Source of the DNA: Amoebophrya sp. A120
Taxonomy: Eukaryota; Protista; Dinoflagellata
DNA length: 64,000 bases
Reading direction: 5' to 3'
Assembly (NCBI GenBank): GCA_905178155.1
Contig: CAJINV010000003.1
Location: 10,855,367-10,919,366 of the forward strand
Shown: positions 1-60,883 of the stretch, one piece after another
Layout: every line of letters starts with the position of its first letter
Position numbering within the stretch: position 1 is the stretch's first letter
Notes under the pieces: model-generated
Told to the model about the DNA's origin: nothing
The model's database searches: none
Seen by the model: only the letters and a program-made list of their open reading frames with translations
Program-made: the position numbers and the translations under genes

Positions 1-242
1 TGCCGCTCAAACTAAATTGCAATGAAGATCAATCTGCTTTGCAGCATGAATATATACAAGATGTTGCCCACTACTTTCGGCCATGCTGAGAAGGACTTTT
101 CATGCAAAAGATGCACGACAGTCAAGGCCTTGCAGAACGTGTTAGGCCGCTAAGCCCTGCGGCGCTCCAGCAGATTTTGAGAGGCCTGAAAAAGCTGCAT
201 GACAACACCATTCCAGACCCAGAGGCATTTTCGCATTTGATA
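1..242. mobile_element. 3' end of an inverted-repeat intron (introner), family TATCAAATG..TCTGGGTCTGGAA
   Basis: ttccagacccagaggcattttcgcatttgATA closely resembles the right end of element 58811-59077. TGCATGACAA at 196-205. Open Tubby frame follows. Confidence 0.7.
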
Positions 243-2355
243 CTGGCTTGGGTTCCACGATTGTGGAAGCGGACATGCGCGTGGTTTCAGAGAGCAGCTC
301 AGAGGAAGACGAAGAGGAGCGGCGGCAGATGGAGCAACACATGCAAAACAGCCCCATCATGCAGGGCCAGCAGGTCAATTTGCAAATGGGCACGAACGGG
401 CAGCTGATGGGGCTTGAGCCGCGCGTGGAGCCCATCGCGGAAGACGGCTCGGTGATCCAAATGGAGCATCAAAGCCCCCAAGAGGTGGTCGTGATCAATC
501 AGGATAACCAGGAAATCAACAGTGCCGAGTATGTGATGCGCACTTCGCAGCCGGCGCCAAACCAGGTAGTGTTTCGAAACGGAAAAAAAGTACCGTCTTT
601 GCACGCCGCCCGGCCCCTCCACTTACCTCCGGAGAGGTTCGGCACCAGCGTGCAGCTTAGAAAAGATTTCGTCACCCAACCTCTACCCTTCGCGGATCGA
701 AGTCACACATTACAGGTAATTTGCTCGTAGTGAGCTTTTTATTTGTGGTTGACGTCAATAATTCAAAAACTCATCAAATGTCTACATCCGTAGTGCTGTC
801 TGCCGGTAAAAAATTCCAAGACCTCTAAAAGATCCTCAGAATGTTCCTTCTCCTCGATCATTCGATGATGACGGAGGAGGAAAAGAGTGGAATTCTTTGC
901 GTTCATGTTTCATCTTTACCATCCGGTGCAATGCGAACAGGCGCGCGTTGTCCGAGTACGCGAGGGATTGAGCGGTAAGCTATTTCCCACTTACCATCTC
1001 TGCATTCGGAATGGTCCCGGGGCCGATGAGACCATCCTTCTGGCCGCCCAGAAGCAAACCGGAAAACGCAGCTTCAGCAGCTACTACCTGATAACTCTGG
1101 ACCCACGCTGTTTTCAAAAGGGAGCGTCCACCTACGTCGCAAAACTGCGCGCAAACTGGGCAGGAACAGAGTACTTTTCATTGTATGCCTGTTTTACACC
1201 TAGTTTCGCAGTTATTTTCCCAGCAAACAGCAACGACAACAGCGTCTTTCGACGCTCTCAGACTTTGGTACAGCTCGGGACCTCAGCTGCGCACGTAGAA
1301 CTAGCGCTCGCACGAAAAAACGACGAAGGTACACTTTATTTTCGGATGGCGATAACCCGAAAAAGACAAAGCGGCTCCGCGGGTCAGACAACGCTCTCTT
1401 CGACCCGAGCGCCGCGGTTCGAGAAGAAATGCTTGCTATCAAGTTTTCGAAGCCCGGCAACGCACCGAGAAGAATGGTGTGCATAATACCAGGTACAGTA
1501 GGCAGCTACATCAAAATGATGTGATCAACGTACCACCTTTTCGAATTTTTTGAATAGGAACAATTTGTCTTGCTCCCTGCTGCTTCGTTTGAAGATGATT
1601 TTTGGAGAAGGTGTAGGGCCCAAGCGATTGAACGACCACCATTAAGAACATTGAGTAAATACGACCGTGATCTGCAACTGACTCAGGGACGATGCCGGGC
1701 AACCCCTATGAGAGGCAAATTTTCCGTTCGAAGCCGTACACTAGTCTGATCAACTACGCAACGGGCAAGGAGGTAGTGACCGAGGGCGAGGGGATTGATT
1801 TTTTGAAGTTTAGCAACAAGATCCCAGTCTGGGACGCACGCAGACAGACTTTCACGATAAATTTCTACGGTCGCGTCCGCTTACCGTCGAGCAAAAACTT
1901 CCAATTGGTGGAAAGCGACGGCGAGGATGCACCGCCAGTTGTGCAATTTGGCCGTTGGTTCGAGGACGTCTTCCACCTGGACGGAATGTGGCCGTTTTCT
2001 GTGGTAAGTTCTGCTAACTACAGTGTATATCATTGATTTACAGTGTTGTCATCTCTCGTCTATCTTGTTTTTATATGATGCTTCTGTGTGTACTACTAGT
2101 TTTTTATTTGAACCTTTGATGATTGTGATTTTCAAATGCTTTCTGCAGTGGTCCGTCGACCATGTCCGTCAAAGTTAAATACTTACAGGGTCGTTTGGAG
2201 GGGCAAAAATTTTAGTACGAAAGAAAAATACTTCGTACTTCAGGTACGGCATGGTATGTTAGATGCGAAAATCAAAATCGTAGGTACAAATGTTCGCCTT
2301 GGCATTATCTACCTTCGACACGCGGCTCCAGGAAACGTTCAAGATGACGTACTGA
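243..2355 (+). CDS. Tubby-domain (TULP-like) protein, 3' part; 5' end lies upstream of the window
   Basis: Exons ~243-715, 941-1170, 1329-1492, 1687-2003, 2284-2355, joined by in-frame GT-AG introns. Spliced product has Tubby motifs: LFPTYHL, KLRANWAGTEYTLFSDGDNP, APRRMVCIIPG, NKIPVWD..FTINFYGRVRLPSSKNFQL, QFGR, QMFALALSTFD. Confidence 0.9.
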
Positions 2356-4200: not shown

Positions 4201-7200
4201 ATGACGTCATCCCTTCACGTCAGCCAGGGGTTGTTTGACGTCGCTAGTGGGCCGTTGGGTAGCCCGCATCAGCGCGTTGCCTCTCCGTCACCGTCTCAGC
4301 GCGCCCGAAGCGTTCCCGCCAGGCAATCCGATGTCGGCTGTCTCTCGATGCTCGAATGGAAGCGGCAGAATGGCGTGCTGGGGCACCAAAAGGTGTTCTC
4401 GCTGTCACCATGTAAAGGCCGGAAAAATAAACAAAATCAGCAGCCGGAACCAGCTTCGAATCGCGTGGCCTCGCCGAGCTTTCTGAGCATAAAAAGCCTC
4501 CAGGCCGCGTCAACATCCCCAGCAAAGGGCTCCCCTTCGCCGAAGGGCGGCACAAAGGACAAAGGCGGAGAAAATACAAACGCGGAGGATGGATTGTCAG
4601 TATTTCTAGAAACTGCTTTTCTTAAAGAACTTTTTTTTCGTCAAACAAGGGACTGGTTACTATCATGGTCGTCATCATCATCTACTTCGATAAAAGAATG
4701 TTCATGCTCTTCTTGTTATGTTGTATGTGCTGCTGTCGCCAAAACTACGCATTGGTTTGCCGCATGCGGCCGCAGACGAGTAGAAGTAAAATCGACACTC
4801 TTGTTCCAAAATCTACCAACTCCAACGGAACGAATTCCCAGCCAACTCGCGTGAACAGCAGTTCCTCAGCATCCAGTAGCAGTAGTAGCTCCTCGTGCAC
4901 GGAACAAGGCGCGGACGAAGGAACACCCGCACCCGCCTCGCCCTCCCCCGGAAAGAACAAAAATAAGAAAAATGGGCCGAAGGGCCCACTAGACGCGGTG
5001 CGGCGGCACTTCGTTGAGAAGCTATCAGAGTGCACAATTCCCACCCCTTCCCCTCATTTGAAGAGCAGGAGCAGCAAGAGCGCAATCAATTGCAGAAGCA
5101 TGTCTTCCGGACGGAAAATCTGCACGCCGTTTGCAGCACTTCAGTAGCTGCTTGAGCTTCCGCAAGATGTCGTGCAGACACTCGCCACACGAAACCTGTG
5201 GACTATTTGAGCCTTTGCATTACTATTACATGATTATATAATGATAAATGAGGCGAAGGCGTTAGGGGAGTTGTTGTGCACTCCCATAGAAGCTTGGGTG
5301 GGTAGAAAATCGCGACCCGAATAGCCCCTTCTGTGATTTTATGCATCGCAAATGTTACGTCAACGTCATGCATCTGGGTGCGCAGAAATCATGCAAATTG
5401 CGATTTGTAAGCCACATCACTCTGGAGGGTCGCACACCAATTTGTGTTGCCTGAGCAGCGCAGCAACTTGCACAGTTCTTGCCACGCCATTCGCAGATTT
5501 CATCCCAGGCGGGGCTAGCATCAAGAGTCCTGAGCAAAACTTGTCTAAATGCATTTGTGTCCATCCCAGACCGACATCGATCTGCGTGATCCAAAAGATA
5601 CATAACTATCGGCATGACCCAACGATTTTCAGGGAAGAAGATCGATTCACAGGGCAGACTTTTGCATAATCCCGGAGGATCTCCCAGACAACTCATGTAT
5701 CGTAGATATTCGCGATGCATAAACCTCCGGTACTCGCTCTCCCGACGGGATCTGGGACTCCGGCCGCAGGCGCTGGCAAACAACAAGATTCCCTACGACA
5801 TGTGTATCAATTTTTTCGCCTGTTGTGGCGGTTTGACGACAAAAAGCGGGCTGCTGCGGAACCTGGAAAGATACATGCTATGCACTGCAAAGCAAATCGC
5901 ACTCGTATGACTTGCAGTAATGCTAATGCATGACAAATCTCTTTCGAAACCTGAAACACAATTACAAAGCACGCTTTTGGTCTTGCCGAAATTTGTGATG
6001 CTATCAGTACTAGTGCGATACTTTTGCGATGCATACATGCCCAACGTGAACGAAAGGATTAAGGCGGGGATCGCACCCAGTTTCGACCTGTCCGACATGC
6101 GTTCGGTGATCCACTTCGTCGACGCGTTTCAGAAGCAGCAGTGTCGGTCGCTCTTGTACCACCACTTCAAAGCGAAGTCCAGCAGCATCATCCCCGAGAG
6201 CACACTGCGCCTGGCGTGGAACACCGCGTCGAGTTGCAAGCCGCCGGTCTTGTCGAAAGACCAGTGGAGGCAGCTGACCATCGCCAGTAGCACTGCGCAC
6301 ACTCCGGGGTACAGACACCCTACGGCGGACCTGCAACTTGGTATCGAGCTTACAGAGTCGATAAAGCACTTCGGCTACAACGGACTGGACGGACACGACA
6401 ACATCTGGATTCTCAAGCCGACAAACGCAAATCGAGGCCGAGGCATTCGGGTTGTCAGGGTACATTTTTTTTTGTAAAGAAAACTCGCGGTCATGGCCAC
6501 TCATGAGGATACAAAGCAGAAAAAGCAGCCAAGAACTACCGGGCTGAATTAATCCATTTCAACTTATTGCGTTTGTGGTCTGCGCGTCCACTCAGACAGA
6601 GACCGAGGAGTACTTATGGTCAGCATGCGCTTGTTGATTAGATGTACACGAGACCGACAGGTGCAACGGATGTGCGCGAATAAGTTATAAATAGTTTTTA
6701 CCAGGGTGTTGATCATCATCTTCATCATCATTATTATGGACGAGAAAAGCGAGTGCGCAAACGCAAAGCTCCTCGGGGCAAACATGCTTCGGACCTTTAG
6801 TTATAACGATTAAAGATTCGAATTTCATCCCGTGATGTACTTTTTATGTTAGTGTTAGGCAAGATATGAAATCCACCAGGATCATAAGCCAAGCAAATTC
6901 CCTACGACCTAAATTGAATGTTCATTGAAATCAGGCTCTAAATTTGTCGTTCAAATTTGGATCCGAAGTGAAATCAGCATGTTCATACAAATGAACCAAA
7001 AACGAAGTTCATTCAAATCCCACACTGTAAGCTAGTGATGATCAACGATGGTTGATCGGATTTCTCATAAATTTAGGGTGATTAGAATAAATTTGAACTT
7101 TCATGTTTTACCCCCCTGACTGAGACGTGAAAATTTGTGTGTTGTCTGGAACGCTAAATTTTTCCCCACAGGCTGTGACGATAGTCACCATAGATTGACT

Positions 7201-42800: not shown

Positions 42801-45800
42801 ATGGATAGCAGCGTGGTCACCCAGATGTGCCGGGACAACAGTTCGGAGCGAAATTTTACTCGGACAACGGCTGCGTCCGCACAAGTCGTGGAAGCCGACC
42901 TCGCGTTTGGCACCCTGGATGGCTTTCTCCGCCCGCTGGTGGAGTACAGCCTCGAGGTGAACGCGTCCGCGCTGCAGGAGGGCGTTCACTACGTCTTGTG
43001 CGCCCAGCGCAACCGCAGTCGCGACGTGGCCCTGCAGCAGTCGCTACTACACAACTGGACCGCGTTTGCCTCGCTCGACGCCCCTTCCGGGCGGGACGTC
43101 CTGTACGCGCAGGACGGGCAGAGCCCGATCTACGCGGCGGTCACGGACTTGGCCCGGGTCGAGCACGCCTCGCTGCTCTCCCTTCCCGGCCACCAGGGCG
43201 TCACGCTGGAAAGCCATCAAGTGGTGCCGACGCTCCAGCAGAACAACTGGTATCCCCTGTCGCTGTTCGGGTCCAGTGACCAGCGGGTGTTCGTGTCTGG
43301 GTTCCAGCGCTTCCACAACGTCAGCATGATCCTGGGCCAGAGTAACTACAGTGTCAGCTGCACCGCCTGCGAGCTGGTGGGCCGATACGCCTACATCAAC
43401 TCCGATGCGGAGACCCGGGTGCATCTGGCCCCGACCGTGGACCAGTGCGGGGAGCGCCCGTGGACGTTCTGGACGTACACGGTGAACGCGCCGCCAAAGT
43501 GCATCGAGGTGTCACCCTTCCCGGATCTGATCATCGAGTGCTTTCCCGACGTCACACGGAAGCAGATCTGGACCCCTAATTTCCTGGATTTCGTCAAGTA
43601 CGGGGCCTATTACCAGATCTGCCTGAAGCACCAGCACAGCCAATGGGGCAATGCTGCGGTCGACGATGTGTACGTGTCGCCGGCGACCGCAGAAGTTGAC
43701 GTCACTCTTGTCCGCGGGCGGCGAGACTTCTTTGTCACCTTGAGTTGCTACTACGTGTGCCACTTGCAGGATCCCTCGCGGAACTTCACGACGCACGATC
43801 CGAGTTTGACCACCATGGAAAAGGGAAACATACCCTACCTGAAGTACTATCGTTTCGCCACCTGGGAAAGCATCGCAGACGCCTACAATGTGAGCAGCAG
43901 CGACACTGCGATACTAGTGACAAGGTAAGAAATCATCGAAAACACATTACTTCTTGTAGTTTTGAAGTAAGAAGAGCTGTGGATGTTGAGCTTTTTTTTT
44001 GTGCGCCGGCGTGCAGCGCCAGCACGAGTAGCGGGTCGAAGCAGAAGTTGCAGGAGACCAGGGTCCTGGTAGCAAGGCGCACTGCCGGGTATTGTGCGAG
44101 CGGCATGGCTTGACATTCATACACTCATAAGTCGTGCTTGCTATAGTGCTATAGTAGAAGCCCGGAAAAACTCACGTGAACATCAGATACTGCACGTCGG
44201 AGTGCGATCACGCGAAGGGATTTTTGCGGCCCATCGAGCAAAAGACGTGCGACCGCTCCGCCACCCACGGCATTGCAGTGGATCCCCTGCCGGGCGACAA
44301 TTTCAACAAAACGATCACCACGGTGCTGCAAAAGAGTGGCACTCCCGCAGAATGGAACGAGCCGCTCCTGATCGAACGGAGGATTACGGGGATCTCAGAC
44401 GTTAGATTCTCAAGAACTGTATACATAATTTGCCATGCAAAATTGCCATCAGCGCCCACCCCCCGGGGAGGGGATCCTTGGCCTGTGGCTCTGGGTGCGG
44501 GTTTCCACTACATGATGATGATGATGACACGGCCAAACTACTTCGCACGACAAATCCTCAAAGAGCTAAATAGAATTGCTATCTGCGCCGCACTTGTGAT
44601 GTAACAGTTGGAAGCTCCCGCCCGTTTCCCCTTTCAACTGTTGCCATTCTCGCATCACAAATTCATGTATACAGCTGAGATTATCAGTAACGTTTTAGAA
44701 CGCCATAAGGATGAGGCTGCTCGTCGAGACGGAAGCGTACGCGCCGCGGGCGTACTACGGGGTCTGCCTCAACACGGGCTACGGCCCGGGTCCGGTGCCC
44801 ACCTCGGCTAGCATCTTCGTGCGCGACCAGGGTATCAAGAAGTTCCACACGGTCGGATTTGTGTTGGGAAACGCAGAGTACGTTTGGTTTGATTGCGACG
44901 GATGCGTGCCGGGGGTAACCCGCGCATTCCTCCAGGAGTACAGCATCGATGACAAGTGCTATCCGCAGTTCTACGAGCTGCGTACGGCGAGTGGGAAAGA
45001 CGAGGGGCGGCCTGACCCCACGCTGCGGTCCGACAGTTTGTGGCTTCTGGACTCGCGGCAGTTGACGCCCAACATCCACTACTACCTGTGTCTGGACCTG
45101 GACGGAGCGGACAGCGACATAATGACCTACGAACTGGTTGACGCGACGTTTCTCGGGACCGAGATTCACGCCCTGTTCTACAGCATCATAGCGATGCAGT
45201 ACGACCCGCGCGCTGCGTTCGCGGAGCGGGACCAGCACATCTACGTGGATTTGCCCTACTGGGGCACCAACGGCAACCGCGCCTTCTGGATGCTCGAGCT
45301 GGAGCGGTGCCGGCAAGGGGTGAACATTAACGACATCCAGGACACGTCCCAGTCCGGCGCCAACTGGAATTACGATCCTAACGGACTCGACGACTGGAAG
45401 CACAGCCGAGTCTTGGAAGTGAACCCCACGTCGAGTCTCGCTCCCCAGGTCGGGGAGTATGGCCGTGTCCCGACTCCGCGGGAGGACAGCGACTTGCTGG
45501 TGTGGTACGGCAAAACGCACCTGACCATGTTGCGTTCCGGCTATTACTACCGGATCTGCGGCGCGGACCAGCTGGGCCGGGGCATGGGCGATACGAATCT
45601 GAAGCTCTTTATCTCGCCCGTGCTGGAGTTCGCCACCGAGTCCGCCGAGCCGGAGCGGCGGCAGGAGGTGCGGTTTTCCTGCCCCGAATGTTACGAGAGC
45701 GAGACCCTGGCGTTCCTCGACTACAACTGCTCCCAGGCGCTGCAGCCGTTTCTCAAGTTGGCAGAGATAGAAACCCGCGCGCAAAGTCTGAGTAGCTCCC

Positions 45801-48800
45801 TGCAAGCCGAGTGGACGTCTTTGCTGACGAGCCTCGAAAACACGCCCTCCTACTACGTCGCCACGAACGACGTGAGCGAGCACAAGTACCCGGACCCGAC
45901 CGACCACGGGATACCTGCCCCCGCGATTTCGCCGCTCGTCGACTTTGTCGCGGCGCACCTCTATCCGCAGATGACCACCACGGTGAAGAAAGCGATCCAT
46001 TTGGTGTACGACGCGAACCTCGACACGCCGTTGTTCTTGATCCCCTACAGCACCAACGTGACCGGCACGAGCGCGGTCAGTCCCGCTCCGCTAGAACCGC
46101 CCGGCGAGTTTCGGGCAATCGTCGGACTGGACGAGGCCGCTCAGCTATCCACTGCAAATTAATATCGACGATCTGGGCCCTCGGGGAGAGCTGTGCATTT
46201 GTTTGTGCCAATGGCTGTGCCATGCATCTTGCTTCTGCCATCAGAAGATTACAGATACAGATGAAACTAGGCAAGATTATGCTTTTTGCATCAGCTGCTT
46301 CTAGAGCTGGAGTATTGGTATGGCACGCGAAGCGTTATAGGTTTTGAGAAGCCCGCTCCCAAAACATGGGTACTCCTGTGAGAAATAGGGTATATCCGTT
46401 GCTGGAAAGAGACGTCAGCGCCATTTGGCACGCGTGCAACACCGATTTTTGTCTGCACGAGGTGGAGAATGAGTATCACAAAGGTGCAATGAACTCGTGG
46501 TCGAGACCCAGACATACACAAATTTGCGATGCATAGCAACAGGGGGAGTACTACCGCAAGCAGCTGACGAACACCCTCCCGGTGCACACCAACCTGGAGG
46601 CGTGTTGCGGGTTTCGGTACCAGCTCGTGTACCACGCTCGAAGCCTTCTTCAGCAGCCACGGTACCCGGTGAGTTTGGGAAACGACACGTGGTCCATGAG
46701 CGTGGACTTTAGCTACGCGGAGAAGGGCCGACATTACGAGCTTTGCATACGGAGGAACACCACTCTCCCAAGCGGACCGTCCAACTGGTATGTTTTCGTG
46801 AATCCGATCCCGAAACGGCTAGACATCACGATCAAGATGCTGAACCTGGAGCCGGCAAGGCTGCACTGTCCCGTGTGCGCGAAGCGCGCTAACAATCCCA
46901 ACGTGTACCAATCGCGACTCTATTTGACCGCCGAGCCGGTGTGTAACCCGTCCGGAAAACGCACCGAGGTACAGTACCTGCACACCAGCGCGCAATTGGT
47001 CACAATCGACGACGTGGTGCCCGGGTTCAACGCGCTGACTCGGCAAAATGCCAAGGTCATGCGTGTATCACAGGTGTACTTGTTACACAACTCCCCACGT
47101 TGTGGTTGTCCTTCTCGTTTGTCATGAAAAATGCCATCAAGAGGGAGAGCGGCCACATCCACCTTTGCCTTGTGACACTGTGTACCGCGTGGCAGGGTCG
47201 GAACCCGAAATTCCAGCGCTAGAGACCTTAATTACCAAATCTTTATTCAAAAAAGAGAGGCTCCTTTGCAACGCTTGGTCCCAGTCAACGCCTGCTGGGA
47301 CCACGATCCTATAAACATCGTGCCTGTCCGTTTTCATTCAGGGGTCGGGGGACTGCGGGGAGTTGTGCACTCTGATAGTGCGGCGGCCAGACTTACAAGA
47401 TGTGCATAGACGTTATGGAGCTCTCAAACGTTACATGCTCAACTGTTACATGATTTGTCATGCCAAATTAATGAGCATCAAGATCAACATCCACACGGTG
47501 AACGTGAAGGCACTTCGCGCAACAACTTTTGGAAGGGTTAAGCAGCAGCAGCACCTAGAAAATCTGTGCGGAATTTGCAATGCTACAAGTTATGGCAAAA
47601 ATCAATAGAAGAAAGGTCCTCGCACCTGTAGCATTGCAAATTCATGTGAATAAAGTTGAGAGTGTAACGCTTGAGCGCACCATATACGTAGATGGTCCGG
47701 GGCCGCTCGCGCCGCACACGAACCACTGGCACTTGCCGACCATGCGGTACGGGTACGCCAAACCGCACACGATTTTCGTGTCCCCCATTCTAACAGCGCA
47801 ACGGACCATCTACGATGAGGGCTCGCAAACAATCGACATGGTCTGCCCGGATCTGGTGTCCGCAGTAAATTTCCCGTACACAGCGACGATGTGCAAATGC
47901 GGATTCCGCATCCACGACGAATCTTATGCTTGCCTCCCATGCTAGAAGTCCTCAGTGGGACAAGTCGCGGCGTTACAGCACTCGTCTAAGTTGTTGGCTA
48001 ATAGAAATAATTTGTGATCCATTTTGTGCCACCAGCACGTCGTGTGCGGGAAATTATTTGTGTTGCATATCTGGGTTGCGTGGACGGGCAAAGCATCATC
48101 TTCCTGGAGCAGTTTGAGGCTGGGAAGGACCTGCTTTTGATCTGCAAGAACCAGGGGCTGGACAGGCGGTCGGATCCGTTGCCGCAGGTGGACGTGGCCA
48201 AGTTGACGGCGGTCGCGAACAACTTCCGCGTCACGGTGAACTCGGCCCAACTGGTCCCAGGGTGGTACCGGATCTGCTTCGACTACGACGGAGTGAGCGG
48301 CGCCCTGGTCCCCGGTTGGTCCGAGCACGACGTTTACAACTCGGGGGTGTACAACGCGTTCTCCACGGGCCTCGCCAAAACCACTAGCATGTCGGTCTTC
48401 GTGAACTGCAACGGCTGCTCCGAGGCCACCACCATCGCCTACTTCAGTCGCGATTGCGAAGTCACATACACTATCCAGAAGAAAAACGTTCTTCCAGCAC
48501 CTCAGTCTCAGAGTTGTCATGCAAACGTGCAAGCTTCACAAGTACAAGTTGAAGTTTCTCATGCGCAGCCCCATGGGGTGGTGGAGCATACTGTAATACT
48601 GTCTGGCAGGAGTTTGTCGTGCTAGAATCAGGGTAAGGAGGTAGATTTGTAATGCAGCTACAATTGCCAAACGCGATTAAGTACACTGCGAGCGCCAATA
48701 AAACCTTTTATGCGCGCCAGCCAAAAGTAGGAAAATCCTGATCTTGACTCTGAGGTGAGGACGTTTTTGTTCACAATATACACTGTTTTTGGAAACAACC

Positions 48801-51800
48801 GCACACCAAGGCTGAAGGTGGAAAGGATTACGCAGGTGGGTTTCCCCTACGGGTGGCGGCTCACCGGAGACACCAGTCTGCTCACCTATTCCTGGTCGTA
48901 CCGGCTATGCCTCAGCGTCAGCGGAAACACCACGCAGGAACCTATTGGGACAAGTTTGAAATTTTACGTGTCCCCGCTAGAAAATGTATACAACTTTTAT
49001 TATATTGATTCACAGTCCTCTCGTCTTACACTTCTGATGTGGCGCTTTGAAAATATCTGGTTGCTAATACTTAATTGCTTCGTTGACTATTTCTGCTTCA
49101 AGTTGAAGTTGTTCGCATGGCTACGTACAAAATTGGGATGCTTCGTGCGGTGTTTTTATTTGCCATATAAATAAAACTACAAGATATCCACACAACGGAG
49201 TCGTGAGTTGGGTACCAGTTATTTTTCCAATATAACCAAACACAGGTGAACATGATGACCGTGTTGCCGCTCGAGTTCCTGATGTATCGGTTCACCTGTT
49301 TTGCCTGCGACACAAGCATGATCGCCTACATTAGTTACCAGTGCGACACGCAGGATGGGTTGAATCCGGTGTACCGGAAGGAGGGCTATTTCGATTTGTA
49401 CATATGCTCTGCAAAAGTATCGCACTGGCAGTAATTGCAGTCATGCATAAGAAATTTTTTTCTTAAGGTGTATCAGCATGACATCCGTTTCCCATGCTGG
49501 GCTAATTTGTCATGCGATTCAATATACTAGTAGGCGCGATACTTTTGCAATGCATAGCACACCTCGCAAAGCAACTTTCTGAAGCGAGACAAGGTCCTAT
49601 CAGAGCGCAAAACCACTCGGAGACGTCCCCCTCTGCTAGCATGAACGCCAGGGAAGGCAGAAGCTATACCAGGAGTGCAGAATTACACAAAGTTTGTGTG
49701 TGAAGAAGATAGGTTCTTCATGTTGCACCGACTGCAGATCTGTATGGATGCTCGTTGGTCATGCAAGAAGTGCTTCCAGAAGGCAACACCAGGATACAAC
49801 AGTAAATGTGGGGAGCCGGAACGTCGAGGAGTTGTGCACAGTCATAGGGCCGCGCCGAGCAACCGACCGAGTTCGATTGGGCCCTGGAGATCGATGCCGC
49901 GAACCCGCTTCCCGGCCTGCGTCTATCCTGAGTAATTAATAGCTGTTGTAGCCGCACTCCCAGGACATTGTGACAAATCCACGCTGGTATCATCCTGGTT
50001 AGGGCATGGACGACCCTCTCGCAAGACAGTAGAGAACGCCTCTCAACAACAACATTTGGAGCCGCTTGTATGAGACGCACACACGACATGATAACCCGGG
50101 AATCATGGAAATTTGTATGACGTCAGCATCTGGTGTGAGTACAACTACGTTATTTTTACACAGGATGGCTTCCCGGACGACACTACAGTTTATGTGTGTT
50201 GCAAAACGGTGAATTGGGAAACGCGGTGCCGAACATCTACACCACCCCGATTTTGAAGAAACCTCTGTGGAACTGGCGCCCGTCCAACTTCTCCAGCTCA
50301 ACCTTCACAGCCGCGATCGGAGACAATGTGTGGATCTACAATGAGCCGGAGCCTTTGTACATTCACCCGGGCGGGATGACGGTGTGTGCGTGGTTTCAAA
50401 TGACGCCTTTCGACTATCAGACCAAGACCAAACCCTTCTTCCCGCTGAATCCCATCATCGATGGCGAGCGGTACGGCATCAACATCATGGCCAACACGCT
50501 GGAGATATCTTTTGTAAAGACGACGCACCCGCCATCCCATAGTCAAGACGGGAATTATTCTGCAAGACAAATAAATCCAAAACTTGTATATGGGAGTCAT
50601 GCGTCGGCGACGTGACAAGCTTGGCTATAATGCTGCGTTGCCGTGCCAAGCTAGTCCGGACGCGTCGCAAGTCCGCTCTCTTTTCCTGCACTTCGACTTC
50701 GCCCGACAATTTTACTTACAGACATGACGTAGACTAGAAAAATGCCAGCCGGGTCGCGCGAGATGTTTTGCGCAAGCAGATTTGCATGACAATCCTGAGG
50801 GCGCGGCGGGGACGTCTTTACTCAGGACAGGAAATCAACTTCTTCGTGCGTGACGACATGATATGCGTTTGAAATATGTCTGGGCGGTCTGGAAAGATGC
50901 AGGCAATATGTCTTTTTCGTTTTTACTGATGGAAGCAGCTAGACCAGCGCATGGCAGCATCAAGTGCAGCTGCATTTGTTGATTTACTTCTCCGCCTCTT
51001 GGTTGCGAATTCATTTTCATTGGTGGTAATTCATGTATTTTACAGTTTTAATCGGGCTTGCAGCAGCTCAACCACTGGAAAACTCGCTTTTATTCCTCTG
51101 CATCTGTCAGAGATGTCTATTTTGCCTTCGAAATCTTGCATCTCTGACATTTTTGTAATTGCGGTTGATACCTGACGGAGGGCTACAAGAAGGGTATCAC
51201 GTGCGGCGTGACCACGGGCATCCATCATGTCTGCGGTGTGTGGCAGGCCACGAGGGAGAGCATCGGGCAGGGACGTTTTCTGTACTTCACAAGTTTGAAG
51301 ATTTTCCTCGACGGCCGCATTTGCAACGAGAAGCCGTACGAGGGAACCGGCGTGATAGAAAAGGACTGGGACTACCTGTACACCATGGTGGGCGCGGAAC
51401 GGCGCTACATGACGGAATTCGAAGGCAGCATCTGGGATGCCCGGGTCTACGATGAACCATTCCATGATCGCCTGATTTATTCCCTGAAAATTACTTAACC
51501 ATCCCCGTCCAGTTTGTCACGCTCACGCGAGACATGTTAGTAAGTAGTAAAGTCACGGCTTTGCAGTCATGCAAAAACTGTATGGGAGTGGTAAATTTTG
51601 AGGGAATAGGATTGAGCAGATTTACGAGGAAGGCTACGCCTACCCTGCGCTCTCGCAATCTCTCGTGCGCTCGAATGAAACAGACGTACTAGCTTTCATG
51701 CGGGTTTGTTATCACTGCGATTTCTAAGTTCGTTGCCACAACAGAAAAGGCCTTTCTTTCTCATGTTTCTGTTTCCTGTTGTGTTAGTAAGTAGATTTAT

Positions 51801-54800
51801 GGAATGAAGAATGAAGCGCCATGCTGCACGACTCCTCTAGTTTTGAAACGAACGTCGAAATTCAAAAATACAACAGATCTACTTTTATTGTTACGTACCC
51901 TGCCTGGGCAGCAAGGTGGTTCTTTCGACTGACTGCGATGATCTCGAGGATCCGAGCAAGCGCGGGGAATTCGGGTCGGTAACAACGCAGCGGGCTGGTG
52001 TAATGGACATTCTGCCCACGACACCGGGTGGCGTCTACATATCGCACCAAAAAGTGCTAACATTAGAGGACGGATTTCGTACCCAGTAATACATCAGGAT
52101 TCAGGAAAGGCGGCCAGCTTTGGATGAATTGCATGATATCATGCAAGCATTCTAGGAATTTTTTTGTCAATGCCCTAAAGATTAGTCGAAGCCGTTCTTT
52201 GCGCTAGCATTTTTTTTTGTTTGATACTGGAATTTATGTTTCAAGATTCAAGACCCGCCGATCAATTTTTCGCCGTACAATCCGAAGTACGGTGACACAG
52301 GGGTGCGCGTGTTCGTTCGTCCCAGGATTCATCTTGTGCAAGTTGTGAGTATTCAGGTTTCCAGTGCGCAGGTGATGGTGATTCAGGAGGCAACTTCGTT
52401 GTTTGCGTGCCAGCCCTTGCTGCCGGAAGAGGTAGGGGAGACGTTCCTGGTGTTACCCACCTGGATTCGGGAACGGGGCATCCTCGCGAGTGGTTGGACC
52501 CAACTCCCCGCGGAGAAAGCCCTGTCCGAGTATGGGGTCTCCTCCGACGTGCCGCTCTATCAGGGATTCGTTCCGTTGGACAAACTCACGCCAGACGTGG
52601 GCTACACGGTCTACTGCGCCGCGCACCTAAACGAGGACGAAATCTGGATCCGCCCGTTTCGAACACAGGTGGCTGCGATCTTTACAGCCAAACTGCGCAT
52701 TCACGACGTGCAGCAGGGCCATCTGCAGTATGGAATGCACAAAAACTACTACGTCCCCGCCGTCCCAGCTTCGTCATCGACAAATCTGCATGCCTGAAAT
52801 GTTTCTCATGCGCAGCCTGCCTATGAGGAGTGTTTTCTACCGCTAGCGTCAGGAGTTTTCGTTTTGGTGTCATGGCCTGAGTAGCATAATGTCATCGATT
52901 TCTGATCCAACTGCTTCCGCTTCGCTAAGCACGGCTACACTTCAACTAGGCCTCAAGTTGCAATCTGCAACAGTCAAACCTAAAACTTCTCGGCTTGTGC
53001 AACAGAGTGACACAGCAGCTGTCATCTTGGCTATGGGTGCTGGGGGATGTTTTTACAGACGATATGCAGTCGCCCTACCACAATGGCCTCGTTATTCGTG
53101 CGACGGCACAGGGTTCGACCTTTGTCCAGTGTCGACTCGTCGGGCCCAACCGGATTTACCTCGCGAACTCTCCAAGTGCGCGGGAAGGCGAAGCGCCCGA
53201 CGGCAGCACGCTCAACAGCACAGTACCGGGACAAACCATCTACAAAGGTGTAGTTTATTGCTCTTCTTGTTATTCTTGTGATGTTGTCGGTCGCGACGCT
53301 CTGCTCAACAAAGAAATGGAAAATGGTCAGAAGTAGTTGTCGTGGTTGATAACTCCTCTACTAAAATATGAAAATAATATAGAATTGTTGTTGTCGTGGT
53401 TGCAGTACTTGCACAAGTCCTTATGTATGGTCCTCCTCTGATGTACTAGTTCTAGTTCTCGTAGTTCTGTGATCCACAGCACACCAACAGGGCCATCGTG
53501 TTTCAAGTCGAGCGCCGTACCTCCCTACCAGCTGTCGGATTTCCTGTATCCGACGACGGGTCCCGAGAACGGGACTGCGGCTGGGTGCGGGTACAGCAAC
53601 CTCACCTACTGCCCGGACTACTGCAGCGTCGGGATCGACGGGTTGTACCCGGCCTCGGACTATGAGTTTGAGTGCTGGACCTTGTCCGTGCCCCACGAGC
53701 GCCTGAACGGCACCGGGCGCACCGCGGTGCCCCCGCTCGCGTGCGGCGGGTTTCTGTGCGTGGCCCTGGATTCCCTCACGGGAATGTTGACGGAATGGAA
53801 CGTGTCCGCCACCCGTTACCTGCCGACCGCCAGCAACTTTCCTCTCCGGACGGTGGACACAAACGGGCAGACCTCCTGTGGTGTGCTGGCCGCCGACGTG
53901 CGTGTGGACGTGCAGATGACCAACCACCACGTGGAGTGTGTGGGGGTGCAGGCAAGTTTGTTCCAGGACACCACCCAGCCGTTCTTCTCCGTCTCCCTCG
54001 GCGAGTTCCACAAGTGCAGCGTCAGCCGCGGCCTCATCGCCAGTTTGAAGTGCGCCGGTGATGTATCCAATCGAAAAGAGTAGTAGCCCCAGTGGTTGTA
54101 GTAGTTCCAGAACATCAAAAAACGTTTCTCTCGCGGCGAATTTTTCACATTCAAAGAAGAAGAGCCTCCCTTTGGGGGCTGCTTGCATGAAAGGATTGGG
54201 ACTCGCTCCTGGTGCGGGTCTTTCAGATTGTGGGCGCGCGAGCACATGATCCACGCGTGATTCCGTACATGACAAGCTCGAGTTCATCTTTCTTGGCCTT
54301 TTTGCAATGCAGTTTCTTATTGAAGAACCTCAACCTGCATCGAACTCGAAGGCGCGCACTTGTCCACCTCCTGCGGTGGCAACTGTTTCCAGGAGTAGTT
54401 GGTGGTATTGCAGCTACTACGGAAGTAGTGGTCGTGGTCGGGCCGAGTTCTGGACCGGCAACCAGGGGACTTGTTTTCATGTTGATATGACGACCGGTGG
54501 GGGCAGTTAGTCACGCTCCGTGGCGAGGAGCTGGTGACCAACTACCTAGACGTTTCGTGCGGCTGGACGCACTGCTGCGCACTGTCGACAACCTTTGCGC
54601 TCAAGTGCTGGGGCTACCTGCCCAGCGAGGTAGCCGCCCCCGCGGGGGAGGTGCGGTTTGTGCAGGTGTCCAGCGGCCGCGGCTACAGCTGTGGGGTACG
54701 CGCCGACGACCGGCGGGTGCAGTGCTGGGGCACGAACGAGTTCTATCCCAAGAAAATGAATGCGCTTACATGTTACAGTCATGCGTTAGCGTTCGGTGGA

Positions 54801-55729
54801 AATTCAGCATCGAAAAGTAAGAAAGTAGTTTCGCACCATGTAGTGTTGACAAAGAAAGGTTTTCATTGAGGATACTATCCTGATGATCTCTGAGTCTGAC
54901 TCTGCATGACAACGCATGAGACTTCTGGGCTCGCGTGCTTAATATCCGGCATGACAGACCTTGCCCGTCGTCTTGCCTAGTCTGCGAGAACGCATCAAGG
55001 CCCGGTGTTGTAACTGTAGTTGTCGTACCTTTTTTCTTTGCATTCGTTTGGGCAGTCCATTCCCAGCAACGCCACCCTGCGCGACCTCGCTTTCGAACGG
55101 GTTGCGTGCGGGGTTCACCACACGTGCGGGATTCTGCAAGGCAGCCGGAAGATATCACGGGAAAAAGTGTTAACGTTAACGGAATTTGTGATGCGGCAAC
55201 GCATCACAAAACGTGTCAGAATTTGTCATGCATAGCATGCATATTTATTGGGCTACATTTGTGATGCATGGCTGCCATCTGTGAAAACCGTTAACGTTAA
55301 CACTTTTCCTTGGGATAGAAGATCGCGTGCTGGGGCGCGTTTGAGCTGGGGCAGCTGGATTTGGGTGCGGAAGTGGAGCAGGACGAGTTCATTAATGTGG
55401 CGGTCGGTTCCTACCACGCGTGCGGATTGAACCTGCACGGGTTTGCGCGGTGCTGGGGCCCAGGGATTCGGGAGGACGCCCTGATTCAGAATTTTACGCA
55501 CCAGGCCCTACTGAAACAGGACCCGGACCGGACCTTCGACTACAATCTGACCGCTCTGCAGGAAGATTTCGTCTTCTACATACCGAGGGAGCGAAAGGCT
55601 TTGTCCTACAAAACGATCAACTTTTTGCCTTTGACGAGCAAGTTTGGGTTCGTGTCCGCCGGAAGCGGGGCGTCCGGGATCCCGAACAATTTTTCGATGT
55701 CCGACCCGGTATATCATAGGACCAGGTAG
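36806..55729 (+). CDS. Giant secreted/surface protein: many Cys-containing beta repeats, LamG/ConA-like domain, C-terminal RCC1/BLIP-II-like repeats
   Basis: Hydrophobic N-terminal segment (FIYLILCTVLVLGL). Recurring h-x-x-G-x-x-Y-x-h-C-x-D-x-DG...VYVSP unit and many NxS/T sites. LamG-like HHVCGVW..KIFLDG..FEGSIWDARVYD. Repeats VSCGWTHCCAL..CWG, VSSGRGYSCGV..CWG, VACGVHHTCGI..CWG, VAVGSYHACGL..CWG. More than 20 exons, several junctions unresolved, so it could be more than one gene. Confidence 0.72.
37004..37307. mobile_element. Probable inverted-repeat intron (in frame, no stop)
   Basis: TGCAA/CGCAG flanks, gcaaatat / atatttgc inverted repeat. Element+5 = 309 nt. Confidence 0.55.
37386..37808. 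mobile_element. Inverted-repeat intron related to 22064-22374
   Basis: tatggaagtgtctgggttgaaatt / aatttcgacctttgcgcttccata, GAAGG/GGAGG flanks. Also readable as GT-AG. Confidence 0.8.
38419..38738. mobile_element. Non-canonical inverted-repeat intron
   Basis: tatccagaaaaa..ccagca / tgctgg..tttttcctggaca, AGGTG/AATTG flanks, frame-consistent. Confidence 0.75.
40370..40637. mobile_element. Non-canonical inverted-repeat intron, family TATGCATYGCAAA
   Basis: CGGTG/CGGCA flanks, tgcaaaagtaaaa / ttttacttttgca, TTGTCATGCA at 40467. Confidence 0.82.
40520..40598 (+). repeat. ~75-bp dispersed repeat with (GAT)n tail, copy 1
   Basis: cgcccaccccccggggaggggatccttggcctgtggc..ccactacatgatga, near-identical to 44453-44527. 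Confidence 0.9.
41832..42118. mobile_element. Inverted-repeat intron, family TATGCATYGCAAA
   Basis: GGATG/GGACG flanks, tatgcattgcaaat / atttgcaaggcata, three GTCATG boxes. Also readable as GT-AG. Confidence 0.85.
44385..44707. mobile_element. Non-canonical inverted-repeat intron
   Basis: Perfect AGGAT direct repeats, TAC..ATA ends, acgtta..ctgtatacat / atgtatacag..taacgt. Removal gives ERRMRLLV. Confidence 0.82.
44453..44527 (+). repeat. ~75-bp dispersed repeat with (GAT)n tail, copy 2
   Basis: Near-identical to 40520-40598. Confidence 0.9.
46146..46535. mobile_element. Non-canonical inverted-repeat intron
   Basis: TCAGC/GCAAC flanks, tatccactgcaaatt / aatttgcgatgcata, frame-consistent. 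Confidence 0.75.
47066..47377. mobile_element. Inverted-repeat intron, family TATCAGAGTGCACAA
   Basis: Right end is the near-exact reverse complement of the left end of element 5023. GCGTG/GTGCG flanks. Confidence 0.82.
47414..47684. mobile_element. Non-canonical inverted-repeat intron
   Basis: GACGT/TACGT flanks. tatggagctctcaaacgttaca / tgtaacgcttgagcgcaccata. Removal gives CIDVDG. Confidence 0.88.
47857..48069. mobile_element. Non-canonical inverted-repeat intron
   Basis: Perfect TCTGG direct repeats, aatttcccgtacac / gtgcgggaaatt. Removal gives CPDLGCVDG. Confidence 0.8.
48472..48778. mobile_element. Non-canonical inverted-repeat intron
   Basis: Perfect TACAC direct repeats, aaaaacgt..cacctcag / ctgaggtg..acgttttt, TTGTCATGCA at 48514. 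Confidence 0.85.
49403..49556. mobile_element. Non-canonical inverted-repeat intron, family TATGCATYGCAAA
   Basis: GTACA/GCACA flanks. tatgctctgcaaaagtatcgc / gcgatacttttgcaatgcata. Confidence 0.88.
49598..49846. mobile_element. Non-canonical inverted-repeat intron, family TATCAGAGTGCACAA
   Basis: GGTCC/GGGCC flanks, tatcagagcgcaaaac / gagttgtgcacagtcata. Confidence 0.78.
49924..50167. mobile_element. Non-canonical inverted-repeat intron
   Basis: GCGTC/GCTTC flanks, tatcctgagtaa / ttacacaggatg. Removal gives LRPGRHYSLC. Confidence 0.8.
50506..50829. mobile_element. Non-canonical inverted-repeat intron
   Basis: GGAGA/GGAAA flanks, gtaaagacg / cgtctttac, TGCATGACAA at 50783. Confidence 0.78.
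50862..51170. mobile_element. Non-canonical TAT..ATA intron
   Basis: CATGA/CCTGA flanks, weak inverted repeat, frame restored into the LamG-like exon. Confidence 0.65.
51478..51608. mobile_element. Non-canonical inverted-repeat intron
   Basis: TGATT/GGATT flanks, tattccctgaaaatt / aattttgagggaata. Confidence 0.8.
55153..55317. mobile_element. Non-canonical inverted-repeat intron (near-complete foldback)
   Basis: Perfect GAAGA direct repeats. aaaagtgttaacgttaacgg / ccgttaacgttaacactttt, plus gcatcacaaa / tttgtgatgc. TTGTCATGCA at 55223 in the loop. Removal gives SRKIACWG. Confidence 0.92.
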
Positions 55730-57085
55730 TAGTAGAACGGGCTGGCTGATTTTAGGAGTCGCCGAAGCGGCCACGGAGTTGTCCTCATCTGCGACGGCGG
55801 ACTGCGACTGCGACGAGGGAAATAATTATATGGATACATAGACGTAAGAAATCAAATAATCTTGGAAGGAAACAACGCGAACCACCACTGACGAATTTAT
55901 CTAGAAAATATACAAAGAGGAACAGAGAGGCACAGACAGAAAATGGCTGTGCCAAGAAATCTTCAACTTTGCATAGCCCCTGCAGACACGACAGAAGTAG
56001 CAGCGCGGATCCGTGCTCTTTTCTTTGTAGCGCGAGACCGAAACAGACCTTTTTTGTACACGTCACGTATATTGGAGCAGAAGTCATTTTGATTTGAAAT
56101 TGCTATTTACCGCGAAGAGCCCGTGCACAAGCTGTATCTTGTTTTTTTTTCTTTCTTGCAACAAGCCACCGTAAAAATGAGGTAAAGGTGCACCTTTTTT
56201 CTTTTCCTAAGCTCACAGACGGATTCTCCCCTGGGCCCTAAGAACGGTCTAGTCTAGCATCTTTTTTCGAATCGGTTGTGTACAAGTAGATTTCTAGCGG
56301 AGGTGGACTAAATCACGAATCTCGTGCATCTTGTGCTGGAGTGTTTTCTATACAACTGCGATGAAACTCTTCGACTCTCCCGCCACGAGAGACTTATTGA
56401 TGACTCCAGTACGGGACCGCTAGCGATACTTTGGTATTAGCATCAGGATCAGATCATCGGCGACGATCACGCTCATCATCGCTATTCACGGCAGGTTTCA
56501 CCTTCCATGTTCTCCGAAGAGCAAGCATTTTGTGTGTATTGGTAGCAAGTGTGTTCTTGTGTTTGTGATTCTGGTGTGGCAAGGCATTGGCTATGAGATT
56601 GAAACAAAAGCGAAAGCGTCGGTGTAGTTCTTTTGCACGTCTAGAATCGAGGAGCGCAGCTGCAGAGTGGAGTTCGGATAGGAACATTATAGCGTGCTTT
56701 TCCCCTCCCTGCTGACACTCACCGGGGTGTTCTGGTTTCTGAGAGCATGTCCCTGAGTATGCTTCCCAGATTTATATGCCGCACTGACAAAGAACAAGCG
56801 AAGTACTGGAAGTCCCAATATCAATTCATTCCAAAAAGAAGTAGACATGTAAGAGCAAGAGCCTGTGACATGAGTATTTGTTACCTGACACCCCCGCTCC
56901 AGTTCCTATATGAAGATATTGCCCACGCTCAGGAAGTATTTCATTTATTGTGTATATTCAGCCACTCAAACTCAAAATTATTCAATTTCTTTTTCATATT
57001 TTGATTGTCTGCGCAGAGACAAAAAAACTTTTTTCTGGGCTACAGACCCACAGAACAAAGACTAGAAACAAAAAGGACAACAGGT

Positions 57086-58366: not shown

Positions 58367-58718
58367 TCCATGATAGAATGAATTGGAGCAGGGTCATTTT
58401 ATATGGGCGACAACTTTTGATCTTGTAATTTTGTTGAACGTCGAGTAAAATAAATCACTGATCTGAAGTCATTCTTAGTGGAAGGAGGGAGTAGCACGCA
58501 GCAGCCTGTCAAAGGGCTCACTGCCAGCATTATCATCGTCATCGCTAAGCTTCGAAGATGGTGGCGGAATTATATCAGATATCTTTTATCTCAATGCATG
58601 AACCTCACATGGTACTCCACGGCATTATCGCCATCGCGCTTTATATATTTTTATTGTCATGACAATACTATGTTGCAATTCGTATGAGTGCGGTAATTTT
58701 GCACAGAATAGCAACAGT

Positions 58719-60883
58719 ATGGAGAATCGGTGCCGGCGCTTGTTGGAGGTGATGCGCACCCTGCAAACTCTGTGGGGCGGCGGCTACCGGGTTCCGGGAA
58801 CGGGGGAGTTTATCAAATGTAAAAATGTCTGGGTCTGGAAGATTCCGAGATTTGTCATGCAGTATTTCCAAGGTCCACCAAGTCTGGAATGCAGGGCATA
58901 GCATCACAGGTTCTGCAGCCCCTTGCTGATGCCCATTATGCATGAGAAATGCCCTCTGAGCATGGCGAGAAATGGGGACCTTTTGCAAGTCATGCAACAC
59001 AGATTTTTGTATCATCCGCAACACGCATCACAAGTTCGTATTCTTCCAGACCCAGACTGACATTTTTACATTTGATGGAGTTGCAGTCGCTGCAATTTCC
59101 GAATTTTTGTGCGGAAAAGACGCAGGTTCTTCAGTTGGATGCAAACCTCGTGAAATTTATGGAAACAAAAGGAAAGCTGAGTGCTGAAACGACAGCCAAA
59201 GTGGCCGCACTGTTTGGAATAAGAATCGAAGATGCAGCAACTGCCATAGGACCAGGATCGGCCGCAACTGCAACTACCTTGAGAGACGTTGACGTGGCCT
59301 CCAAAAGCTCAGAGAATAGACCTGCTGTGGCCCCCAGCAGCACTAACGCGGACATCCACATCGGGGCTGCAACCGGAAGCGCAGCGACTGCAGCTGGTGC
59401 CCCAAACGCTGCGCCAGTATCATCCACCGTACCTGCGAAAGTGAAAAATAAAGGTGGCTCATCCGGTATGTGCTGTTGTGCCCAGGACGGTGACGCACAG
59501 GGTGCGGAGGCCGAAGCGGCGGCCGTGCCTGACGTCAAGGGCCTGGCACGATTTTCGATTGCATCGATCGACGATATTAGGGCTGGCGAGGGTGAGGAGG
59601 GAGATCCGCTGGCCGCTCTAGCACAAGGGCAAGATGATCCTAGAAGTACCAACAAGAATAATACGAATGGTGCTACCAGCGGACTACAGCTAAATGATTC
59701 GCCCGTCGTATCACCGCAAGCGCAAGAGGGAGCTGCCGACGGCCAGACAACGTTCGAGATCCTCTCTGGTGCCCCAGTCAAGGGCACAACCGCGATGGGG
59801 GTCGCTCGCAGTCGGGCGGAGAGCGGTGACAAGCGAGTCGTTGCTTTGAATGCCGCTGCAGCATTCAAGGTGGGCGGGGGTGCCTTGACCGGGGGTCGGC
59901 ATGCGCTCGAGGAGTCGTGGTGTGCGACCACGACGCTGCTCCGCAGTTTGTTGCAGGCACAATTTATGGTAGAGCGTGGATCCATCGGACCGCGCAGCAT
60001 TTCTTCCGGTCTACTCAAAGACAATCGTGCTTCAGTAGCAAGTGCCGCAACCACTCGCAGTCCGCGGATGAGTGCCAACGTCAGGGTGACCACCACCTCG
60101 ACTGCGGCGACTACTCCAGCGCAGTCCAGCACGCATCATGGGGCAGAAAAACGATATTTTCCGAGTTACTCATGCGTGATGTCACCCAAGGTAGAAATTT
60201 TCCGCGGGTCCATCTTCGACAACTACAGATTCTTGCCGAACTATCAAGGCAAAAAAGTTCTTCGTCACGAAAACTCATTGGGTTCGGCTTCGGGGGCGGG
60301 CATGAGCTTTGCAATACAAGCAGCATATTTATTGTCTGCGAAGATGATCCATAAGAAAGCATCACAGGGAGTTGAATTGTCAAGTAGTATGCGATGTGAT
60401 TACGGATGTGATTGCTTTTCTGCAACAAAAGAAAAAGTTGGAATCTTCCTTCGCAGGAGATGAAAGCTTCTGCAAAACCCTCCAAACCTGCCGATGAATA
60501 GTGACTAAAGCGATCTTTTTTCCTTCCACGCCCAACCAGTGGCGCTCGCTGGCGTGGTGTCCATTGCGGCCTTCAACTGTAATCCGAGTGTGCGTGACGC
60601 TCCCATCGACGCTCCGCAGGACCCCAGTGCGTATCGAGACGGGCTCCGCCGAAAGTGGTTTGTGGCACTGTGCGGCGCCGCACTTCTAGAAGGTCAGGTT
60701 CTTGTAGTTCCGGACGTCGGCTGCGGCGTGTTTCGAAACCCGCCCGAGGAAGTGGGCGACGCTTTTGCGTTTGTGTACTCGCAGTTTTTCGCCAACACAT
60801 TTGAGCGCGTTGTTCTCTTAGGGAATCCAGCTTTTTGCGAGCGTGCTGCCGCCGGGGCCGCAGTCGTAGTCCGAGCGCAGTGA
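58719..60883 (+). CDS. Microbial-type poly(ADP-ribose) glycohydrolase-like macrodomain protein (TIGR02452/DUF2263-like)
   Basis: VVALNAAAAFKVGGGALTGGRHALEESWC..TLLRSL, SPKVEIFRG, VVSIAAFN, LVVPDVGCGVFRNPPEEVGDAF. Introns at 58811-59077 and ~60242-60530. Confidence 0.82.
58811..59077. mobile_element. Non-canonical inverted-repeat intron, family TATCAAATG..TCTGGGTCTGGAA
   Basis: Perfect GAGTT direct repeats. atcaaatgtaaaaatgtc..tgggtctggaaga is inverted at the right end. TTGTCATGCA at 58852. Confidence 0.92.

Follow-up and report, generated by a model that had tools for sequence, protein, structure and literature searches.

A repeated internal box in helical phase is shared by introner families of Amoebophrya sp. 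A120

The introners of Amoebophrya sp. A120 are short elements of many families, bounded by inverted repeats and removed from RNA as introns with non-canonical splice sites. In a 64-kb stretch of this genome (contig CAJINV010000003.1, positions 10,855,367 to 10,919,366; hereafter the window) we find that introners of different families have in common a 10-bp box, TTGTCATGCA, which recurs within single elements in both orientations and in phase with the turn of the DNA helix. Most likely, the word is recognized on double-stranded DNA, by proteins aligned on one face of the helix. On balance, we predict that the boxes form a binding array for the machinery that mobilizes introners, a role that, by analogy, would most likely be that of the subterminal repeats of Emigrant or CACTA elements. 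The box is apparently an undescribed component of known introners.

The exact box is present 12 times in the window (seven forward and five reverse copies) against an expectation of 0.21, and 31 copies with at most one mismatch are present against 5.77 expected. None of 100 shuffled windows matched either count. An earlier note on this DNA had listed 11 of the exact copies, every one correct in position and strand, and had overlooked the twelfth, at 34927 (+); nine of its ten near matches lie at the base given, and the tenth, at 51565, is displaced by about one base. All 12 exact copies and 28 of the 31 near-exact ones fall inside 38 elements that occupy 10.6 of the 64 kb, the elements having been listed from RNA joints, pairs of terminal inverted repeats (TIRs) and family hidden Markov models (HMMs) that themselves include the box. 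Sites were also scored with a weight matrix (cut-off 8 bits) trained on families F1–F13, the training set including six elements of the window, two of them among the 21 spliced introns considered here. By this measure the 21 RNA-confirmed non-canonical introns (5.9 kb) hold 31 sites, with at least one site in 15 of them, and nine RNA-confirmed GT-AG introns (2.4 kb) hold none; there are seven sites in 19.6 kb of exon and between zero and two in each of six intergenic stretches. The earlier note saw no box in the canonical introns that it had read, yet one of these, the GT-AG intron at 1493-1686 (without RNA confirmation), holds a copy with two mismatches at 1565 that scores 16.1 bits.

A wider sample of elements came from metagenome contigs, which were scanned with a pattern drawn from a single family's terminal repeat and excluding the box. 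The scan yielded at least 144 loci totaling 410 kb (364 kb non-redundant), with full flanks for about 80; the 79 loci examined for source all derive from one public assembly. Among 171 ends fetched by their TIR, the box was found within the stretch scanned with zero, one or two mismatches at 45, 58 and 52 ends, respectively (155 in all), and 91 of the 103 boxes with at most one mismatch start at offset 39–42, behind a variable spacer. In the young F0 introner at 58811..59077 of the window, the exact box starts 41 bases after the first base, and two further centers, at 58998 and 59029, are spaced by 31 bases. A TIR-pair finder returned 601 candidates, of which 419 scored at least 12 (a score reached by one pair in 128 kb of resampled sequence); after removal of 35 nested pairs, 384 elements remained. 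These comprise 14 families of two to 172 copies and 29 singletons. The 13 families analyzed span 112–322 bp, and the introners of the window match the metagenome-derived families by HMM.

The exact 10-mer proved to be one spelling of a degenerate motif, (AA)TTTGT[C/A/G]ATGC[A/T/G], with several sites per element. In families other than the one used as query, the most enriched 7-, 8- and 10-mers all spell this motif, the leading 10-mers being 12- to 57-fold more frequent than in the flanks. Each of the 13 family consensuses contains two to eight box sites, in both orientations and at fixed positions. With the boxes masked, common sequence was left only at the terminal stretches and in four short internal matches, and because the masked consensuses share so little, the earlier claim that the hosts belong to different families is broadly true; nevertheless, the boxes at 196, 26696, 41878 and 58852 all lie in F0 elements, and a few families are related. 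We also considered whether the box might be an internal copy of the terminal 13-mer and dropped the idea, only 7% of ends scoring as box.

The variable base of the motif can be A, C or G but is hardly ever T. This composition would suit a methylation target, the core V-AT-G fitting the VATB context of AMT1-type adenine methylation, and VATB is a described context of N6-methyladenine (PMC12695648). Such a role is nonetheless extremely improbable: T takes the place of the A of the box in 17% of sites, whereas the TTTGT and TGC on either side are fixed, and no report on N6-methyladenine in Amoebophrya was found in the literature searched.

The elements have well-defined ends. Of 351 elements, 325 have TAT..ATA termini (TAT at one end being a condition of detection), and 267 are flanked by an exact 5-bp target-site duplication (TSD), with other lengths at background and an exact 6-bp duplication at none. 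Across families, TAT is found at 98–99% of ends, together with A-rich positions 11–15, and the inserts of the window likewise start with TAT, are A-rich at positions 11–15 and end in an inverted copy. Judged by these features of sequence, the elements belong to the non-autonomous DNA transposons. Like subterminal repeats, their boxes are short repeated words that keep set positions within the TIRs and are conserved from one mobile copy to another.

The arrangement of the boxes was studied in 13 consensuses, F12 being dropped for having the same ends as F0, and F0 itself being represented by 60 of its 172 copies. Among pairs in the same orientation at most 110 bp apart, 16 of 59 were separated by 31–33 bp (null mean 2.0, maximum 8), whereas pairs in opposite orientation peaked at 15–17 and 46–50 bp. 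We computed a phase statistic that scores highly when same-orientation pairs are separated by whole turns and opposite pairs by half turns. It reached its maximum, 0.44, at 10.5 bp, the helical repeat of free B-DNA, and across all periods between 8 and 20 none of 5000 randomizations equaled it; the statistic was 0.26 at 10.2 bp and 0.04 at 11 bp, with secondary peaks at 6.25, 28.9 and 39.8. The bootstrapped period was 10.25–10.6 bp, with no peak at 32. The phase was also present in pairs more than 40 bp apart taken alone (reached in none of 3000 randomizations), and it persisted without F0 and in all seven of seven family subsets. Boxes pointing inward are, in addition, phased to the end of the element (Rayleigh p 0.0008, n=31), in clusters 35–37, 44–47 and 56–58 bases from it. 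At F0 ends in loci L001-L144, the distance from the terminus to the first box center is either 36 bases (47 ends) or 43–45 bases (216 ends), intermediate values being few, a step of 8 bases that is less than one helical turn. Stretches of viral contigs with two boxes 30–33 bases apart were set aside; 120 were among the matches listed, mostly of 39 or 42 bases, as coding repeats would give.

We interpret the boxes as sites on double-stranded DNA because of the 10.5-bp phase, its loss at 11 bp, the presence of both orientations in single elements and the chance-level agreement of inverted boxes, which match at the variable base in 30–43% of pairs where about 36% is expected from base frequencies. 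The preference of the earlier note for a double-stranded site over a branch point is borne out by the same observations. Could the boxes act as RNA instead, inverted copies pairing in an intron hairpin or single copies serving as a branch point or a site for an RNA-binding protein? Predicted folds do pair two to six boxes with one another in each consensus. However, we hold a role in RNA to be highly improbable: inverted boxes agree no better than expected, the elements are spliced in both orientations, the phase vanishes at an 11-bp period, and the strongest signal is the spacing of boxes in the same orientation. Nor do the boxes behave like a branch point or RNA element in their distribution, being on both strands, several per element and missing from six of the 21 spliced introns.

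A phase extending across 100 bp would also suit wrapping. A host chromatin protein (a histone, DVNP or HMG-type bender) might wrap or bend introner DNA and so aid its spread or persistence from outside the transposition complex. The phase is best when its offset is placed on one or other of the two TG steps in the box, which accords with this idea, and the TTTGT half presumably resembles an HMG-box minor-groove site. We nevertheless judge wrapping by chromatin unlikely. The repeat of nucleosomal DNA is about 10.2 bp, a period short of the lower bootstrap bound and one at which the statistic stands well below its maximum; no clear 10-bp AA/TT periodicity was apparent by eye with the boxes masked; and the boxes are rare outside elements and are phased to element ends.

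Shared ancestry or internal duplication, leaving boxes as relics without function, could account for some of these likenesses: F7 and F8 are related, as are F3, F4 and F10; F5 and F8 share a 110-base match; and steps of 31–33 bp could arise by duplication. Yet direct pairs 31–33 bp apart have only some 7.3 of 10 bases in common, with the same variable base in 24% of them, masked consensuses share little, and the phase persists over long range. Moreover, boxes change at half the rate of adjacent bases. The relic explanation is therefore already largely contradicted, and we regard it as very unlikely.

That slower change was measured by comparing copies. In the four well-filled divergence classes, box bases differ between copies at 0.43–0.51 of the frequency seen for other interior bases, and after correction for CpG and base type 64 box differences were observed where 126 were expected. 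The earlier note's proposal of a conserved cis-signal common to families is supported.

Selection on the box might operate during copying of an element or once the element resides in a gene. We dated copies roughly by the mismatches in their target duplication and compared 51 older with 253 younger ones; with age, private changes were gained at 0.017 per box base and 0.019 per other base, against 0.004 per base of the terminal 14. Alignment of 21 window copies to their families showed mismatches at 11% of terminal, 19% of box and 27% of other conserved columns. Among 20 RNA-supported elements, box density drops as duplication mismatches accumulate (rho -0.61, p 0.004), and old copies lose boxes faster than their terminal 14 bases. 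The earlier note had reasoned that a signal would be refuted if the box decayed as fast as the remainder of the element. The evidence divides: in spreading lineages boxes change more slowly among copies, contrary to that outcome, but after insertion decay is roughly equal, in its direction.

Splicing was followed in contigs of runs X1 and X2, which come from one sample and are presumed to be RNA; raw-read runs X8-X10 contributed 33, 1 and 0 reads, so that the splice evidence is that of X1 and X2. The contigs skip 30 introns listed in 40 kb (21 of the element type and nine GT-AG), and there are 19 further joints beyond those. The 21 non-canonical joints document removal of introners from mRNA in both orientations of the element. 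The intron equals the element plus exactly five bases in 17 of 18 cases examined (for example, 20140-20390, 25790-26046 and 40369-40641), which fits cutting one base before TAT and four after ATA. Indeed, three unambiguous joints lie at exactly these points, with G preceding TAT. Such a cut removes one full target duplication and sets T as the second base of the intron. In the intron at 20140-20390 the duplication has drifted into a GT..AG pair.

These results bear on the other half of the earlier proposal, which had offered two roles, a site for a transposase or a mark flagging the introns for co-transcriptional removal. As a DNA-level flag, the array would recruit a factor for removal of non-canonical introns in a genome where U1 went undetected, as reported for strains A25 and A120 (PMC7789003). 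All nine canonical introns are without a site, constraint is seen even between close copies, and old window copies hold boxes somewhat better than other columns, as might be expected of such a flag. However, at 8 bits no site is scored in six of the 21 non-canonical introns confirmed by RNA, box density declines with age, old introns keep their terminal bases best, and the cuts follow the termini. The role in transposition thus fits, but the removal flag is weakened by the box-free introns, by the fall in density with age and by the faster loss of boxes than of termini, and we consider it quite unlikely. Taken together, conservation between copies, loss with age, box-free spliced introns and cuts that track the termini favor selection on the box acting at transposition, with the termini serving splicing.

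How might a binding array mobilize an introner? An integrase-type transposase (like those of Ginger, GingerRoot or IS3EU) or a DNA-bending cofactor would sit on the boxes along one face of the helix, and the bound array would bend the 110–320-bp element until its two ends meet in a transposition complex. One common internal word would let a single machine move many families with differing inverted repeats. Once inserted, an element would no longer need its boxes, and the paired termini would govern its removal from RNA. An integrase-type enzyme is suggested because of the TA..TA termini and the 5-bp duplication.

Subterminal and multi-site binding repeats are familiar from the TnpA motifs of En/Spm, the repeats of Ac/Ds and Hermes, and the ends of Mu and Tn7. 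Like the boxes, the transposase-binding repeats of such systems are short words repeated inside the TIRs in both orientations, and in known systems they are needed for the transposition complex. The boxes differ in that one word is common to families with different TIRs and is spread through the whole body of the element, that a helical rule governs them, in which inverted sites stand half a turn out of step, and that the elements are also excised from RNA. In the Emigrant miniature inverted-repeat transposable element, Lemi1 proteins bind cooperatively to subterminal motifs (PMC1636448).

The termini and TSD match none of pogo, CACTA and hAT. IS3EU/GingerRoot elements have TA..TA termini, as here, and IS481EU elements have TNT..AYA termini; both have integrase-related DDE enzymes and no strict target sequence, and the word "subterminal" is absent from the two papers (PMC10045372, PMC6839031). 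Their TSDs are 6 bp (IS3EU/GingerRoot) and about 4, 15 or 25 bp (IS481EU), compared with 5 bp here, and because of the 6-bp duplications we do not file the elements under IS3EU/GingerRoot.

We take the elements to be the introners already described from A120, given their inverted repeats of the form TAT-N7-AAA, short direct repeats and non-canonical splice sites, their length of about 240 bases and their many families (Farhat et al. 2021, PMC7789003); published family lengths of 148-149, 208, 256-261, 278, 305 and 319-322 (PMC12130899) match families found here. Farhat et al. treat termini and hairpins and give direct repeats of 3–5 bases, compared with a sharp 5 here, and the text of theirs drawn on here names no shared internal motif or spacing rule (supplementary figures S19-S25 being judged by their legends). 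In the literature searched, outside which lay Roy et al. 2023 (Curr Biol) and parts of the supplements, we came across no account of an internal word common to these introns, nor of helical phasing in them. The exact 10-mer is present in 65 published texts, of which the 20 listed are, judged by title, unrelated, and Rfam gave no match in the window. Gozashti et al. (2025, PMC12130899) report an 808-bp element of A120 introner family 38 with an open reading frame like Copia/Gypsy integrase regions, tabulated as Ginger although, according to the authors, without homology to known Gingers; like the elements described here, it has a 5-bp TSD, TA/TA termini and TIRs.

Several observations weigh against a transposition array. 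The loci contain 99 frames that reach 230 residues, and in the 70 longest of these Pfam recognized no transposase family; nor did the 364 kb of non-redundant loci and the window yield a TIR-bounded element with a recognizable transposase. Farhat et al., who count some 30,000 introners in A120, report no transposase and, in the text of theirs that we draw on, argue against general mobilization by one (PMC7789003). The phase statistic has a second peak, of 0.35, at 6.25 bp; outward-pointing boxes have no significant phase to the ends (p 0.11); the phase is weak or absent in five of 13 families (F3, F6, F10, F11 and F13), was not detected in eight held-out singleton elements (p 0.25) and is weak in older window copies (p 0.025). 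The box rate is about 0.45 of background even in pairs 3–7% apart, as a role after insertion would also give. The intervals of the ageing test are wide (box minus other, -0.023 to 0.016) and compatible with partial protection after insertion; a first version of that test had boxes protected (4.9% vs 9.3%), although it was biased by column choice in small families and the effect was not seen in F0, the largest family. Finally, window copies retain boxes better than other columns (p 0.0005).

The search for an autonomous element, among TIR pairs of 400–9000 bases with a 5-bp duplication, gave 14 candidates, of which only one, in locus L077, had a long frame (415 residues) inside family-type ends, and this frame had no Pfam match. 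The candidate (L077:476-2934, 2.46 kb), with F0-type ends and an exact 5-bp duplication, probably represents an F0 element split by an insertion. When the integrase region of a Copia element in the window served as query, a homology search returned 10 Copia-like proteins, without genomic context.

The principal elements of the window are collected in Table 1.

Table 1. Introners and related introns of the window, with their box sites
Feature	Position	Strand	Box sites	Evidence and remarks
Introner, F0, degenerate	73..242	-	exact 196-205 (-)	family HMM E 5e-14; left end approximate
Introner, F1, about 150 bp	5879..6035	+	exact 5927-5936 (-); second site centered at 5997 (+)	TIR pair, HMM, matrix
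Young introner, F6, 62-bp TIR	22064..22374	+	six boxes; exact 22105-22114; centers 22109+, 22161-, 22194+, 22226+ (last two 32 apart), 22329-	HMM, matrix; joint not among RNA joints listed
Non-canonical intron, F0 reversed	26464..26753	-	exact 26696-26705 (-)	RNA joint in X1 and X2; HMM
Old introner	29549..29733		one, 29597-29606 (+)	inside RNA-confirmed intron
Introner	34789..34989		exact 34927-34936 (+); second site centered at 34880	inside RNA-confirmed intron
Introner	40370..40637		exact 40467-40476	inside RNA-confirmed intron 40369-40641 (unambiguous joint)
Introner, F0	41832..42118	+	three, including 41878 (1 mismatch)	RNA-confirmed
Introner, F7	44385..44707	+	four, including 44430	RNA-confirmed; exact 5-bp duplication
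Introner, F7	47414..47684	+	three, including 47455	RNA-confirmed
Introner, F3 reversed	48472..48778	-	exact 48514-48523; centers 48518, 48560, 48618, 48651 (last two 33 apart)	RNA-confirmed; exact duplication
Introner, F1	49403..49556	+	three, including 49507	RNA-confirmed
Introner, F3	50506..50829	+	exact 50783-50792 (-)	RNA-confirmed
Old introner	54744..55044		exact 54903-54912 (-)	intron inferred from 350-base gap in RNA contig and open frame
Young introner, F13	55153..55317	-	four boxes; exact 55223-55232	exact duplication
Young introner, F0	58811..59077	+	six boxes; exact 58852-58861	HMM, matrix; joint not among RNA joints listed
Non-canonical introns without box	20140-20390, 28230-28581, 29255-29487, 46146..46535, 47851-48068, 49922-50170		none (8-bit matrix)	RNA-confirmed

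Two different introners contain a 75-bp segment, 95% identical and with a GAT repeat at its end (40520-40594 and 44453-44527). A deep RNA contig matches this segment with loose ends, which suggests a small mobile insert with further copies.

The window is intron-rich and its genes are co-oriented. Four domains, all on the + strand, are in line with co-oriented gene blocks: Tub (872-1483), polycystin (20353-21267), class 3 lipase (23952-25385) and microbial-type PARG (58946-60460). An apparently intact Copia long terminal repeat (LTR) retrotransposon at 6853-14246, with LTRs 98% identical and a 5-bp duplication, sits in an intron of a gene of the tubulin-tyrosine-ligase family; its frames at 8088-9338 and 9339-13700 are in phase with a single TGA between them, a possible case of read-through. 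An RNA contig of 12,274 bases covers 38700-56479, a large gene of many introns with RCC1-like repeats near its end (recognized by eye); the one exon frame of this gene that was scanned had no Pfam match.

Finally, we tentatively put forward a fuller scheme, which is rather doubtful as it stands, of a two-code system: the phased internal word, and not the terminal repeats, would mark hundreds of unrelated small elements as cargo for a host or borrowed integrase-type machine that wraps each 110–320-bp element as a whole into a loop, and the paired TAT..ATA termini alone would direct a spliceosome without U1 to its cuts, one base ahead of the element and four beyond it. If this were true, a mass invasion of introns would be explained in a genome without an annotated transposase. 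Independently of this scheme, the shared word brings many families under one mechanism and sets the signal for spreading (the boxes) apart from that for removal (the termini). It is also a concrete bait for the mobilizing protein, making the question of how introners move directly testable, and the box may provide a simple means to detect and age introners in the genomes of marine alveolates.

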